Below, piece by piece: positions 27,191-33,100 of a DNA stretch of 64,000 bases (the stretch's first letter is position 1; each line of letters starts with the position of its first letter). Origin of the DNA: Escherichia coli (GTDB lineage: Bacteria; Pseudomonadota; Gammaproteobacteria; Enterobacterales; Enterobacteriaceae); assembly GCF_003991155.1 (NCBI RefSeq), contig NZ_CP031293.1; one strand, written 5' to 3'. The position numbers were made by a program.

Positions 27191-30100
27191 TTATTAGCTT
27201 CAAAAATCACTATTTCACGAAGAATTTAGACTGCTTCTCACACATTGTAACATTATTTACAACCACCTTTCAATCATTTTTGATAAATCATTGATTTCAT
27301 CTTTGCTGCAATGATACTTAATAAACTCTGCAAGTTATCCACAGAGCAACACTCAATTTTATTGATGATATTCTTATTATACCAGACATTTTTCATACAC
27401 TCCCTTGTACGGATAGTTTTCCGACAACTTCATGATTACATATCTTGCGGTTTTGATTATTTTTGCTGCAAGAAATACATACTTCAAACGAAAGGTCTTT
27501 ATTTGCTGTCTGTATTCTGAAGAGTCCAAGGAATCAAACTTGAACAACAAAAATAGGTTATATGAAAGCATCATCATTTGAAACACGGCTTCATTCGCCC
27601 AAAATGACTTTAGCAAGAGATGACCCACCGCCATGTCGTATTTGGCTTCTTTGATATAGTTTTCAGCATTACCACGCTTTTCATAGTATATAACTACTTT
27701 TTCAGAAAGCAAGGTAGTATTTGTTACAAAGAAAAAGTAGTCGTATTCGGAACCTTCTAAAAGTGATAATTGTGCTCTTTCTTTTTCTGGTTTCAGTACG
27801 CGAGATACGACAAATCTTCTGTCTTTTTCCCATTTAACTAATTTTGTATACAGTTCTGTAGTTTCTCTACCTTCTTCTCCTTTAACGAATACAATTGATG
27901 AATTCGTTGCTTGTGAGGTGAGTGTAGAATAACTTTTGGCTTTAATTAAATATTTGCATCCAAGAGATTCTATCGTTTCGATAATTTTTTCATCAAAGTA
28001 GCCACTATCCATTCGAAATAAAATTTCTAAATCGTCTGATTTGATGTTAGCAACAATTTCTTTGATCATTTCCGCAGCACCGTTTGCAGTGTAAGTATTG
28101 CCACTTCTTACAAATCCGGTAACATATGCTTTTAATTCGTCGCAAAATGCAAATTGGATATTGTAGCATCGGTTTCCCAGTTTCTTAGGATTATATCCTT
28201 TTGACGCACCTTCTTGATGACCTTCTACGTTAATTACACTACTATCAATATCAATCGTAATGGATGTCAATTTACTTTTAGTGAGCAGTTTTTTAAAGAC
28301 TTTAAAATTAATGTCTCTAAACATTTGGGTTGTCTTGAAGTTGAAGTTTCCTAGAAACCGTGACACTGTTTCAGGTTCTTTTACGGAAATATCAAACTCG
28401 TTGACGAGGGGATCATTTTGAAGTAGCTTTAGACGTTCTAACTTATCAATGCCAATGAAGTGACCGCAGAGCATGGTCTTTATATGATTCATCTTGATTT
28501 TATTTGTTGAGTCATTATCAAATACGAGGTCATTTTCAATAAAATCAAAAATCCCATTGCTTTTTGCATTCTCAAGGAGCAGAAAAAGACCTGCATTTGA
28601 TGTTAGATTCTTAGCTTTGAAATCAATTTTATTAATCATAATTAGAACCCCTTTTTACTACTTTTCTTACTATTATTTTACCATATATCGAGTCATAAAA
28701 GCTGATAATTTAACATATTTTTGAGCACTTTTCTTTCACCCAATGGGTGAAAGCTGAATTTCGAAGGAATGCATATTTATCAAGGCTTTGATTATGCTTT
28801 TTGAAGTACTGACGTAGAATCTAGGTAATAGTATTTCTGTTACTGACTTATTAGGCATTGTGCCCACCGAACTGTACAATTTACATCGTGACTTTTTGAA
28901 GTTAAAAGAAATAAAACTGGAACAACCTCTTCCTGCGGTTAAACTTTATATTTCCTATAACAAGGCTTCGTTGAACAACCTTGTCTTCTCCCGATTCATA
29001 GATCGTTTAAATGATAGCTTCTGATTCATTACCACTGACAAATAATATATTACGCATCAATTAATTCATTATGTGAATATAAAATAATGTGCTCTATCTT
29101 GCTTCGTTTATCCTATAATTAGCGGATTCATCTCACGAGTCACCCCGTAACGTTCAGAGAGCGTTTTTAGATGTCTATTTATAAAATCCCGCTTCCACTG
29201 AATATTCTGGAAGCTGCAAAAGAACGTATTACCTGGACACTTAATACCCTACCCCGTATCTGTGTTTCTTTTTCGGGTGGTAAAGATTCCGGATTAATGC
29301 TGCATCTGACCGCCGAAATTGCCCGACAAATGGGCAAAAAAATCTGCGTTTTGTTTATCGACTGGGAAGCGCAGTTCTCATGCACTATTAACTATGTTCA
29401 GTCATTACGTGAGTTTTACGCCGATGTCATCGAAGAGTTTTACTGGGTTGCGCTCCCGCTTACGACGCAAAATTCCCTTTCTCAATACCAACCCGAATGG
29501 CAGTGCTGGGAACCTGATGTCGAATGGGTACGTCAGCCCCCGCAAGATGCGATAACCGATCCTGACTTTTTCTCCTTTTACCAGCCTGGCATGACCTTCG
29601 AACAATTTGTGCGTGAGTTTGCCGAATGGTTTTCGCAAAAACGTCCGGCGGCGATGATGATCGGCATCCGTGCGGATGAGTCCTACAACCGTTTTGTCGC
29701 CATCGCCAGTTTAAATAAACAACGTTTTGCCGATGATAAGCCCTGGACTACTGCCGCACCAGGCGGTCATAGCTGGTACATTTACCCCATCTACGACTGG
29801 AAAGTCGCTGATATCTGGACCTGGTATGCTAACCATCAACAGCTCTGTAACCCACTGTATAATATAATGTATCAGGCAGGCGTTCCTCTGCGTCATATGC
29901 GAATTTGCGAACCTTTTGGCCCGGAGCAACGGCAAGGATTATGGCTCTATCACGTTATCGAACCGGATCGCTGGGCTGCTATGTGCGCACGAGTCAGCGG
30001 GGTAAAAAGTGGCGGCATTTACGCCGGACATGATAATCATTTTTATGGTCATCGGAAAATCCTCAAGCCAGAACATTTAGACTGGCAAGAATATGCATTA

Positions 30101-33100
30101 TTGCTGCTCAATAGCATGCCGGAAAAAACAGCTGAGCATTACCGCAATAAAATCGCCATTTATTTGCACTGGTATCAGAAAAAAGGCATCGAAGTTCCAC
30201 AAACCCAGCAAGGGGACATTGGCGCGAAAGATATCCCCTCCTGGCGGCGAATATGCAAAGTTTTACTCAATAACGATTACTGGTGCCGGGCATTATCATT
30301 TAGTCCTACGAAAGCGAAGAACTATCAGCGTTATAACGAACGGATAAAAGGAAAACGTCAGGAATGGGGGATACTATGCAACAACGATTAACGCAGGATT
30401 TAACCCAATTTCTCGCCAGCTTGCCGGAAGATGATCGCATCAAAGCGATTAATGAAATCCGCATGGCGATCCATCAGGTTAGCCCCTTTCGTGAAGAGCC
30501 AGTGGATTGCGTTCTGTGGGTTAAAAACAGCCAACTTATGCCTAATGATTACAACCCAAACAACGTGGCACCACCCGAAAAAAAACTGCTGAAAAAATCC
30601 ATTGAAATAGATGGTTTTACCCAACCCATTGTGGTCACGCATACGGATAAAAATGCCCTGGAAATCGTGGATGGTTTTCACCGCCATGAAATTGGTAAAG
30701 GCTCATCATCGTTAAAATTACGCTTAAAAGGTTATTTGCCGGTGACCTGTCTGGAAGGTACGCGTAATCAACGCATCGCCGCGACTATTCGTCATAATCG
30801 CGCTCGTGGACGTCACCAAATCACTGCCATGTCAGAAATCGTCCGTGAACTCAGCCAGTTGGGATGGGACGATAATAAAATTGGCAAAGAGCTGGGAATG
30901 GACAGCGACGAAGTGTTGCGCCTGAAGCAAATTAACGGCCTGCAAGAGTTGTTTGCCGACCGTCAATTTTCCCGCGCCTGGACGGTTAAATAACTACAGC
31001 TGGCGCAGGCGTTCTGCTGCTGCCAGCAACGTCGATTCCTTTTTGGCAAAACAGAGACGAATCAGTTTATGTGGGAAGGGATCGGCGCAAAACACCGACA
31101 GCGGAATCGCCGCTACGCCGTGCTCCCGCGTCAGCCACTGGCAAAACTCAACATCATCCATCGTAGATACGGCGCTGTAATCCACCAGCAAAAAGTATGT
31201 ACCTTCGCACGGTAAAATCTCCAGCCGACTTTCATTTAAGGCATTCACCAGAATATCGCGCTTCTGGCGATAAAAGTCCGGTAACGCAAGATAATGCTCA
31301 GGTTCTGCACGTAGCATATCGGCAAGCGCCAACTGTGCCGGGGTATTCACCGAAAAGGTCAGATACTGATGCACTTTGCGGATCTCGGCGCTGATGGGCG
31401 CAGGTGCAACGCAATACCCCACTTTCCAGCCGGTCATATGATAGGTCTTGCCAAACGATGACACCGCCACCGCTCGCTCACGCAATTGCGGATGCGCCAG
31501 CACGCTGGCATGACCCTGTTGTGAAAAATTGATGTGCTCGTAGACTTCATCGCTAATGACAAAAATCTCGTGCCCGCCGATCGCCTGCCACAAAGCGGCG
31601 AAATCAGCCTGCTGCCAGACAGTGGCACTGGGGTTATGCGGGGTGTTGAGGATCACCAGTCGGGTGCGCTCGCTTAACAATGCGGCAAATTCCTGCCAGT
31701 CCACGCGAAAATGCGGTGGTTGCAGTGCCATACGCTTCACTATTCCCCCAGAAAGCGCGATGGCGGGCGCGTAACTGTCATAGCTGGGATCAAAGCAAAT
31801 CACTTCATCGCCATTGCGAACCAATGCAGTAATCGCTGCGTATAGCGCTTCCGTCGCCCCTGCTGTTACGGTGATATCGCTGTCGGCATCTGGTTGATAG
31901 CCATACAGCCGTTCCGTTTTCTGAGCAATCGCCTCGCGTAATGCTTGCACGCCGGTCATGGGTGCGTATTGGTTTGCCCCCTGGGCAACGTGGTACGCCA
32001 GCCGTTCCTGCAAATAGCGCGGACCATCAAAATCAGGAAAGCCTTGCGACAGGTTAATCGCCTGGTGTTGCTGCGCCAGTGCACTCATCTGGGTGAAAAT
32101 AGTGGTGCCAAGTTGTGGAAGTTTGCTTTGTGGAATCAGAGGGTTATTTGTCATTTTTATTGTGCCTGATGAAGTTGCGTGTTGAAGGCACTATAACACG
32201 ATGCTAGTATTTGGCAATCAAGACGTTTAGATGTCTAAATAAAACAATAAGGACAACACAACATGCCTCACAATCCTATCCGCGTGGTCGTCGGCCCGGC
32301 TAACTACTTTTCACATCCAGGAAGTTTCAATCACCTGCACGATTTTTTCACTGATGAACAACTTTCTCGCGCGGTGTGGATCTACGGCGAACGCGCCATT
32401 GCTGCGGCGCAAACAAAACTTCCGCCAGCGTTTGAACTGCCAGGGGCAAAGCATATTTTGTTTCGTGGTCATTGCAGCGAAAGCGATGTACAACAACTGG
32501 CGGCTGAGTCCGGTGACGATCGCAGCGTGGTGATTGGCGTCGGCGGCGGCGCACTGCTCGACACCGCGAAAGCCCTCGCCCGCCGTCTCGGTCTGCCGTT
32601 TGTTGCCGTTCCGACGATCGCCGCTACCTGCGCAGCCTGGACACCGCTCTCTGTCTGGTACAACGATGCCGGACAAGCGCTGCATTATGAGATTTTCGAC
32701 GACGCCAATTTTATGGTGCTGGTGGAACCGGAGATTATCCTCAACGCGCCGCAAGAATATCTGCTGGCGGGGATCGGTGACACGCTGGCGAAATGGTATG
32801 AAGCGGTGGTGCTGGCCCCGCAACCAGAAACGTTGCCGTTAACCGTGCGGCTGGGGATTAATAACGCGCAGGCCATTCGCGACGTCTTGTTAAACAGTAG
32901 CGAACAGGCGCTTGCCGATCAGCAAAATCACCAGTTAACGCAATCATTTTGCGATGTGGTGGATGCCATTATTGCTGGTGGTGGGATGGTTGGTGGTCTG
33001 GGCGATCGTTTTACGCGTGTGGCGGCAGCTCATGCCGTGCATAACGGTCTGACCGTGCTGCCGCAAACCGAGAAGTTTCTCCACGGCACCAAAGTCGCCT

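Follow-up and report, generated by a model that had tools for sequence, protein, structure and literature searches.

IbrA and IbrB, encoded on an island carried by Escherichia coli ECOR-9, are described as 'co-activators of prophage gene expression' and occur, on islands and prophages, in only a minority of strains (PMC7649339). According to work cited in that paper, they activate the prophage eib genes. DndC is defined by a three-cysteine 4Fe-4S cluster and a distinct cysteine dyad (PMC10853773), and in the DpdA/DpdB system of 7-deazaguanine DNA modification the ParB-like ATPase DpdB assists DpdA in the insertion of preQ0 into DNA (PMC12839542). We analysed the gene pair ybdN-ybdM (ybdNM) in a window of 64,000 nucleotides of E. 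coli DNA (assembly GCF_003991155.1, contig NZ_CP031293.1), from the first letter of which all positions are counted. A first-pass annotation of this window had likened the pair to a minimal DndC/DndB-type module, had called it homologous to IbrA/IbrB and had stated that no function is established for the E. coli proteins. By homology, the pair is assigned to the IbrA/IbrB family, which is already catalogued and named, and the comparison with Dnd systems holds at the superfamily level only. The statement on function stands: a full-text literature search turned up no biochemical work on YbdN, YbdM, IbrA or IbrB, and YbdM is described as 'completely uncharacterized' (PMC8764527).

Both overlapping reading frames reported by the first-pass annotation are present on the + strand, as are the two motifs that it quoted. 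In other strains, identical DNA carries the RefSeq names 'phosphoadenosine phosphosulfate reductase' for ybdN and 'IbrB-like domain-containing protein' for ybdM. The features of the pair are as follows.

29171-30391, + strand: ybdN, 406 residues, PP-loop ATP pyrophosphatase of the IbrA family
29258-29872, + strand: PAPS-reductase-like alpha/beta domain, YbdN residues 30-234 (PAPS, phosphoadenosine phosphosulfate)
29267-29293, + strand: PP-loop motif SFSGGKDSG, YbdN residues 33-41, read directly from the sequence
29879-30319, + strand: DUF3440, YbdN residues 237-383, a basic, helical, C-terminal domain
30364-30993, + strand: ybdM, annotated with 209 residues, ParB/sulfiredoxin-fold plus helix-turn-helix (HTH) protein of the IbrB family
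30490-30813, + strand: ParB/sulfiredoxin-fold core, YbdM residues 43-150, placed by alignment and by profile comparison with ParB and Noc of the PDB
30544-30561, + strand: invariant YbdM motif NDYNPN
30670-30684, + strand: invariant YbdM motif DGFHR
30790-30816, + strand: invariant YbdM motif RHNRARGxH
30820-30951, + strand: C-terminal HTH-like three-helix region, YbdM residues 153-196, with the conserved sequence LGMDxDEVLRLKQ

Over its two domains, YbdN matched the Pfam families PAPS_reduct (PF01507, 4.8e-14) and DUF3440 (5e-23). Its family was described with an alignment of 78 diverse homologues, chosen from the 221 clusters that matched at E<=1e-30 in a set of 1.8 billion representatives. 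The PP-loop residues S35, G36, G37, K38, D39 and S40 are at least 90% conserved, residues D64, E66, S171, D214 and Y230 are invariant, and G165, R167, E170, D209 and W210 are conserved. A family-specific aromatic insert stretches from W92 to P124, with W92, W110, W113, W119, R121 and P124 conserved. No column of the alignment holds a conserved cysteine; the best one has cysteine in 63 of the 78 sequences and alanine in E. coli, and Cys246 is cysteine in 39 sequences and alanine in 27. In particular, no conserved cysteine column corresponds to the C-terminal catalytic cysteine of CysH (ECGLH) or to an iron-sulfur (Fe-S) motif. YbdN is thus without an Fe-S cluster, a cysteine dyad and the catalytic cysteine of CysH.

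Because sequence searches of the PDB gave marginal matches (5.6e-4 for YbdN with flavin adenine dinucleotide (FAD) synthase, 1.7e-3 for YbdM with Noc), fold searches were needed. The AlphaFold model of YbdN is confident (predicted local distance difference test, pLDDT, 93.4). Its nearest structures are FAD synthase, CysD and the adenosine phosphosulfate (APS) and PAPS reductases, followed by TilS and TtuA. These proteins bind an adenine nucleotide or transfer AMP, and YbdN has the adenine-nucleotide alpha-hydrolase fold that they represent. For DUF3440, neither structure library searched gave a match. The calculated isoelectric points are 9.4 for DUF3440, 5.0 for the N-terminal domain of YbdN and 9.6 for the core of YbdM. 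As compared to the PAPS domain of FAD synthase, to CysD and to CysH, YbdN adds the aromatic insert and DUF3440; unlike CysH and CysD, it has neither the CysH catalytic cysteine nor a CysN-type partner. All curated NCBIfam models scored YbdN far under their cut-offs: 35.1 bits for the CysH model TIGR02057 (cut-off 254.2), 33.9 for the CysH model NF002537 (cut-off 154) and 21.6 for the DndC model TIGR03183 (cut-off 290.4). These scores, together with the lack of a conserved cysteine, classify YbdN on sequence grounds as an ATP-type PP-loop enzyme with the PAPS-reductase fold, distinct from both the PAPS reductases and DndC.

With YbdM, Pfam gave a weak match to ParB_N (2.8e-4). Its alignment comprised 53 sequences from across the phyla, all of them partner genes of YbdN homologues, and the E. 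coli protein is 40-59% identical to members from Firmicutes, Bacteroidota, candidate phyla radiation bacteria and DPANN archaea. Invariant positions are N61, Y63-N-P-N66, E72, G84, T86, D103-G104, R107, P126, R143-H-N145, A147-R-G149 and H151; H106 is conserved in at least 90% of the sequences. The family profile matched chromosomal ParB and Noc in the PDB at 1e-6. In these alignments NDYNPN falls on ParB box I, and DGFHR, part of the sequence DGFHRH at residues 103-108 (30670-30687), falls on the GERR of box II. The latter motif therefore marks the superfamily and not DndB. YbdM has the ParB N-terminal fold with equivalents of boxes I and II, and the structures nearest to its N-terminal domain are KorB, ParB and sulfiredoxin. 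Its C-terminal 45 residues form an HTH akin to the DNA-binding domain of KorB, to sigma region 4 and to the VirB core. KorB, chromosomal ParB, Noc and VirB, which are CTP-gated DNA clamps and regulators, provide the best structural and profile matches to the N-terminal domain, and they share with YbdM an HTH behind it. YbdM differs from them in several respects. It lacks the GERRxRA box II and the ENxxR box III, in place of which DGFHR and RHNRARGxH stand; it ends after the HTH (about residues 196-209), without the C-terminal dimerisation domain of the ParB clamps; and it has an obligate enzymatic partner. Models of DndB and DGQHR proteins gave no match at E<=10 with YbdM or with two distant family members. 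The first-pass annotation had called a PP-loop protein and a DGQHR/ParB-like protein; the PP-loop PAPS_reduct and ParB superfamilies are borne out, and the DndB/DGQHR assignment is not. YbdM also matched phage proteins in which a ParB N-terminal domain is fused to a DNA methyltransferase (phrog_498, 1e-10; PADLOC MTase_II).

The association of the two genes was studied by a locus scan with one genome per species, using a 16-sequence YbdN alignment as the query, and 79 loci were returned. In nearly all of approximately 75 loci, and in essentially every one with a full YbdN homologue and enough flanking sequence, a YbdM-type gene is adjacent. It usually lies immediately downstream and overlaps; in six loci it lies upstream. 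The pair occurs in Proteobacteria, Bacteroidota, Firmicutes, Verrucomicrobiota, Lentisphaerota, Armatimonadota, Parcubacteria and Pacearchaeota, and its hosts include Enterobacteriaceae, Hafnia, Edwardsiella, Erwinia, Proteus, Vibrio, Flavobacteriia, Chitinophaga, Lachnospiraceae and Listeria. In the phage collection, YbdN matched 224 records and YbdM 225, and in these roughly 225 phage genomes the two genes nearly always stand side by side. Among the ten most frequent phage groups listed, the counts of the two proteins are equal, apart from one extra YbdM record filed under the unassigned name 'Bacteriophage'; for each protein there are 90 records from Flavobacterium phages, 60 from Mycobacterium, 21 from Streptococcus, 12 from Arthrobacter and 8 from Bacillus phages.

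Clustering of about 680 neighbouring open reading frames from about 50 non-enterobacterial loci disclosed no third broadly conserved gene, such as a desulfurase, an amidotransferase or a nuclease, from which the chemistry or a restriction partner could be read. The only recurrent neighbours were SNF2 and other helicases (about 10 loci) and a protein of about 150 residues (7 loci). Where the YbdM-type gene lies upstream, this small protein sits between it and the YbdN-type gene. One phage record labels it 'ParB/sulfiredoxin', a label that profile comparison did not confirm (hhalign probability of 0.1% against the YbdM profile). In phages, the pair follows a helicase-like gene in Streptococcus thermophilus and Clostridium phages (SNF2 by Pfam in one metagenomic contig), stands ahead of a helicase in a Pseudomonas phage and precedes YqaJ/RecT in a Microcystis phage. 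In mycobacteriophage Athena (1-5236) it sits at the left end of the genome, with the terminase immediately downstream. Arthrobacter phage LiSara (226-8326) has it at the left end as well, followed by a methyltransferase and then by the terminase subunits. The Fusobacterium phage phiFN37 (5001-11033) carries an IbrAB-type pair with a helicase, and 3 kb from the pair a ParB-like gene lies beside a queuine tRNA-ribosyltransferase gene, an arrangement like that of DpdA/DpdB. Overall, these contexts suggest a role in DNA metabolism.

Two further observations concern the same loci. One or two additional, different ParB-like genes stand upstream of the pair in the actinophages Athena and LiSara. Moreover, the 281-residue metagenomic protein P0363 joins a YbdM-like N-terminal part (residues 4-114) to DUF3440 (residues 114-275); it is a single case, which may be a genuine fusion or an artefact of a frameshift or of gene calling.

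The closest relatives of ybdNM are the ibr genes. The pair shares with IbrA/IbrB both protein families, the gene order and the overlap. YbdN and YbdM are 56% and 58% identical to the annotated IbrA and IbrB of Escherichia phage PhiR5_2 and fall in the same PHROGs (phrog_2302, 3e-76, and phrog_2159, 1.1e-68), in agreement with the homology recognized by the first-pass annotation and with the RefSeq wording 'IbrB-like'. As compared to IbrAB, ybdNM is the chromosomal, core and CitR-repressed paralogue. Likeness to DndB/DndC consists in the combination of a ParB-superfamily protein and a PP-loop enzyme from the clade of the PAPS reductases, and in the resemblance of DGFHR to DGQHR. YbdN differs from DndC by the missing 4Fe-4S cysteines and cysteine dyad, by its score and by the presence of DUF3440; YbdM gives no DndB/DGQHR signal, and its structure lies closer to those of KorB, ParB and sulfiredoxin. 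No gene for the partners DndA/IscS, DndD or DndE was found in the window, and none is conserved in the approximately 50 non-enterobacterial loci. The 'minimal DndC/DndB-type module' thus fails on model cut-offs, on cysteines, on partner genes and on the structural proximity of YbdM. DpdA/DpdB and the ParB-methyltransferase fusions resemble ybdNM in that a phage-borne ParB-fold NTPase or domain is coupled to a DNA modifier; the catalytic partner in ybdNM is a PP-loop enzyme and not a transglycosylase or an S-adenosylmethionine-dependent methylase.

The enterobacterial locus is conserved and constrained. Of the 5426 complete E. coli genomes, all but 26 (5400) contain the 1823-bp ybdNM stretch at a coverage of at least 80%. 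In RefSeq annotations of other strains, citR (ybdO) precedes ybdN, and ybdL follows ybdM on the opposite strand. The order citR-ybdN-ybdM-ybdL is common to Escherichia, Citrobacter, Salmonella (S. arizonae), Enterobacter, Lelliottia, Pseudocitrobacter, Superficieibacter, Kluyvera and others. The first-pass view of a conserved core locus that was not recently acquired is upheld by this distribution and synteny, and the locus lies outside any variable or defence island. Between genera, nonsynonymous divergence (dN) of ybdNM ranges from 0.10 to 0.29, synonymous divergence (dS) is saturated, and dN/dS is at most 0.18 where it can be computed. Hence, ybdN and ybdM are real genes under purifying selection. 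The G+C content is 35-39% in citR and 42-50% in ybdNM, against 53-56% in the flanks; this AT-richness fits an old horizontal acquisition. No parS-like palindrome or operator is conserved upstream of ybdN, the citR-ybdN spacer being unalignable between genera, and a promoter scan of this spacer gave nothing above the expectation from shuffled sequences.

Published work links the pair to the regulator CitR (YbdO), which binds upstream of citR-ybdNM and represses ybdNM (PMC9068703). In the same study, deletion of citR changed the expression of 86 genes, with ybdN the most induced (log2 of 5.5) and ybdM at 2.5. Alongside ybdNM, the deletion up-regulated citCEF, the flagellar regulon and, as a signature of sulfur starvation, the whole Cys regulon (cysH, cysDNC, cysJI, cysAWU, tcyP and yeeE; log2 of 1.7-3.2; PMC9068703, Table 1). 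The other CitR peaks in ChIP-exo experiments matched no differentially expressed genes (PMC9068703), so that transcriptome data back only the peak upstream of citR-ybdNM. YbdNM could be the cause of the secondary changes that follow citR deletion. The same paper reports that citR is H-NS regulated and cites a UniProt prediction of YbdM as a transcription factor (PMC9068703).

Our tentative interpretation, to which we give somewhat less than an even chance, takes ybdNM for a phage module that has been domesticated: YbdM would direct it to DNA, and YbdN would adenylate a nucleic-acid substrate and so leave a mark that alters expression or restriction. The E. coli genes would be a normally silenced copy of the two-gene IbrA/IbrB module that is widespread in phages and would act on DNA. 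Within a physical complex of the two proteins, YbdM would be the targeting or switch subunit, its ParB/sulfiredoxin-fold pocket binding a nucleoside triphosphate (NTP) and its HTH binding DNA. YbdN would be the catalytic subunit: its PP-loop would split ATP into AMP and pyrophosphate and thereby adenylate the substrate, while the basic DUF3440 and the aromatic insert would hold the nucleic-acid target. The adenylated intermediate would then be resolved by a non-cysteine nucleophile, or AMP would stay attached, and the resulting covalent mark would affect the reading or the restriction of the DNA. Its role in phages would be to protect the phage genome or to regulate it. The enterobacterial module is kept off by CitR, and reportedly also by H-NS; once expressed, it would change the activity of other genes, in the way that IbrAB acts on the prophage eib genes.

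Catalysis by YbdN is suggested by the SGGKDS PP-loop and by residues D64, E66, S171 and D214, which are kept across its homologues. The ParB/sulfiredoxin core and HTH of YbdM, as well as the basic character of the YbdM core and of DUF3440, point to DNA targeting. By analogy, the ParB-fold partners of DNA modifiers (the phrog_498 fusions, DpdB and the arrangement in phiFN37) offer a precedent. The obligate pairing, the DNA-metabolism contexts in phages, the AMP-transferring or adenine-nucleotide-binding structural neighbours of YbdN and the expression effects, namely eib activation by IbrAB and the changes after citR deletion, count in favour as well. Several facts weigh against this interpretation. 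No modified nucleoside, enzymatic activity or YbdN-YbdM complex has ever been shown. The chemistry is left undefined by the lack of a conserved cysteine and of any conserved amidotransferase, desulfurase or donor gene nearby. The experimental phenotypes are purely transcriptional and need no covalent mark, and strain artefacts may account for the flagellar changes seen on citR deletion. Finally, YbdM over-expression slowed growth by about 10%, and deletion had effects of 1-2% (PMC8764527).

A bolder reading, which we think rather unlikely, extends the proposal to IbrA/IbrB-type pairs in general and sees in them a widespread nucleic-acid modification system with new chemistry. A DNA base or the backbone would be adenylated at the expense of ATP and the adduct resolved without an enzyme cysteine, for example by a lysidine-like amination, or retained as a stable AMP adduct. 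The ParB/sulfiredoxin NTP-switch subunit would deliver this chemistry to DNA, and phages would use their own genomes as the target. In Enterobacteriaceae and, as a separate event, in Listeria, a silenced copy would have been domesticated, and it would serve as an inducible epigenetic switch that activates foreign or silenced genes.

The alternative that survives best leaves the DNA unmodified. YbdM would be a pure transcription regulator, a KorB/VirB-like, NTP-gated DNA clamp or an anti-silencer that opens H-NS-silenced genes, and YbdN would supply, consume or sense the nucleotide ligand, or would adenylylate YbdM. The VirB anti-silencing paradigm counts for this explanation, as do the UniProt prediction, the reported H-NS regulation of citR and the low G+C content of citR-ybdNM. 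Furthermore, the sole experimental phenotype of the family is the reported activation of the eib genes. We nevertheless find a pure regulator doubtful, because it leaves unexplained why an obligate PP-loop partner with its catalytic site intact has been retained all the way from archaea to phages, and why virulent actinophages have copies beside terminase and methyltransferase genes. The missing clamp dimerisation domain and the replacement of the ParB box II (GERR) and box III by DGFHR and RHNRARG also speak against it.

YbdN could instead modify tRNA or rRNA in the manner of TilS, TtcA, TtuA and ThiI and so alter how foreign, AT-rich genes are decoded. Of the characterised PP-loop enzymes with nucleic-acid substrates, most do modify tRNA, and the basic DUF3440 could bind RNA. 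However, the obligate partner is a ParB-fold and HTH protein, the genomic contexts are those of DNA replication, recombination and packaging, and no conserved cysteine is available for thiolation, which makes RNA modification improbable. We attach similarly little probability to a small-molecule pathway in which YbdM would be a kinase, as the ParB/sulfiredoxin-fold enzymes SbnI, SerK and sulfiredoxin suggest, and YbdN would adenylylate the product to give a nucleotide-linked metabolite or signal. Such a pathway would agree with a weak SerK match of one phage YbdM-family member, with the transfer of AMP to phosphate or sulfate by FAD synthase and CysD, the top structural neighbours of YbdN, and with the induction of the Cys regulon when ybdNM is derepressed. 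The conserved HTH and the two basic surfaces point rather to nucleic acid, no transporter or pathway gene is conserved nearby in about 50 loci, and the phage contexts are DNA modules.

A Dnd/Ssp-like phosphorothioation or anti-phage defence module is very improbable, and Dnd membership is largely refuted by the scores, cysteines and partners described above. For the first-pass statement that such pairs were flagged in defence-island surveys, no confirmation was obtained. PADLOC-DB v2 has no model for the pair and returned only weak DndC, BrxP and MTase_II matches; the DndC match to YbdN (21.6 bits, 2.3e-5) covers residues 155-254 only, and that of BrxP reached 1.7e-4. Also on the side of defence, DndB belongs to the same ParB superfamily, IscS of E. 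coli could conceivably donate sulfur, and a 2026 preprint lists NAP plus PAPS-reductase (+ParBc) clusters as candidates. Beyond the discrepancies with DndC and DndB, neither dndA, dndD or dndE nor restriction partners accompany the pair, the locus is core, syntenic and repressed, and the family is abundant in phages themselves, virulent ones included.

Genuine sulfate assimilation, with YbdN as a PAPS reductase or 'cysH' auxiliary metabolic gene (AMG), is extremely improbable. The RefSeq product name and the Pfam match favour it, as do the viral surveys that count the DUF3440 clade among CysH AMGs (bioRxiv 10.1101/2021.01.05.425418). Against it stand the scores with the CysH models, the variable Cys246 and the absence of a conserved catalytic cysteine, a fully retained ATP-type PP-loop, the obligate ParB-like partner and the fact that E. 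coli already has cysH. A toxin-antitoxin pair of a ParB-like antitoxin and a DUF3440 toxin is barely conceivable: the core-genome pair lmo1309 (ParB)/lmo1310 (DUF3440) of Listeria monocytogenes was listed as a putative one through guilt by association only (PMC7020466), but the two proteins are unlike any known toxin or antitoxin, a toxin would not typically be a 406-residue enzyme whose active site is intact, and deletion of ybdM is viable and even slightly beneficial (PMC8764527). Given the family analysis, both the toxin-antitoxin and the 'cysH' labels look wrong.

Two features of the locus itself deserve description. As annotated, ybdN and ybdM overlap by 28 bp (30364-30391). The annotated ATG of ybdM at 30364 is unconserved across the enterobacterial genera compared, and the ATG at 30376 is kept in 12 enterobacterial genera and is preceded by the Shine-Dalgarno-like sequence GGAATGGGGG. 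The true start is therefore probably 30376, giving a protein of 205 residues, and the true overlap may be 16 bp. The second feature is an insertion in citR.

25269-25978, + strand: 5' part of citR (ybdO), cut after nucleotide 710 (codon 236 of 300)
25973-25978 and 28826-28831: target duplication TAATA(G), flanking the inserted unit
25979-28825, - strand: ISEcp1-blaCTX-M-55 transposition unit of 2847 bp, inserted in citR
26246-27181, - strand: bla gene of this unit
27377-28639, - strand: tnpA gene of this unit
28826-29024, + strand: 3' remnant of citR
29025-29170, + strand: citR-ybdN intergenic region, AT-rich and differing between genera

At this site, the unit is absent from all of the 5426 complete E. 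coli genomes. Plasmids that accompany the closest chromosomes (CREC-544, 2016C-3878 and AR#0349) bear an identical unit, so that the insertion looks like a recent hop from plasmid to chromosome. As citR is broken by the unit, ybdNM is probably derepressed in this isolate. YbdM protein was reported to rise 29-fold specifically in cells with a blaCTX-M-15 plasmid (PMC8764527). This rise and the CTX-M-55 unit found here in citR may be a coincidence or a real link, and a link could consist, for example, in selection, or in transposition into citR in the strain of that study.

Overall, ybdNM is among the few core operons of E. coli whose enzymatic motifs are clear and whose reaction is not known. 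Members of its family are found in hundreds of sequenced phages, where YbdN homologues are routinely labelled 'PAPS reductase / cysH' and counted as sulfur AMGs. Since the family has no conserved cysteine and an obligate ParB-like partner, the 'cysH' label is almost certainly wrong, and viral AMG surveys are affected by this probable mis-annotation. Were the module to mark DNA, it would join, as a new member, the small set of ParB-assisted DNA modification systems (Dnd, Dpd and the ParB-methylases), and such a mark would explain how IbrAB switches on prophage genes. Should these pairs prove to bring a new chemistry to nucleic acids, much of the published 'CitR regulon' would be a YbdNM regulon. 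The present isolate is a natural citR knockout and provides a ready-made test case for the function of ybdNM.

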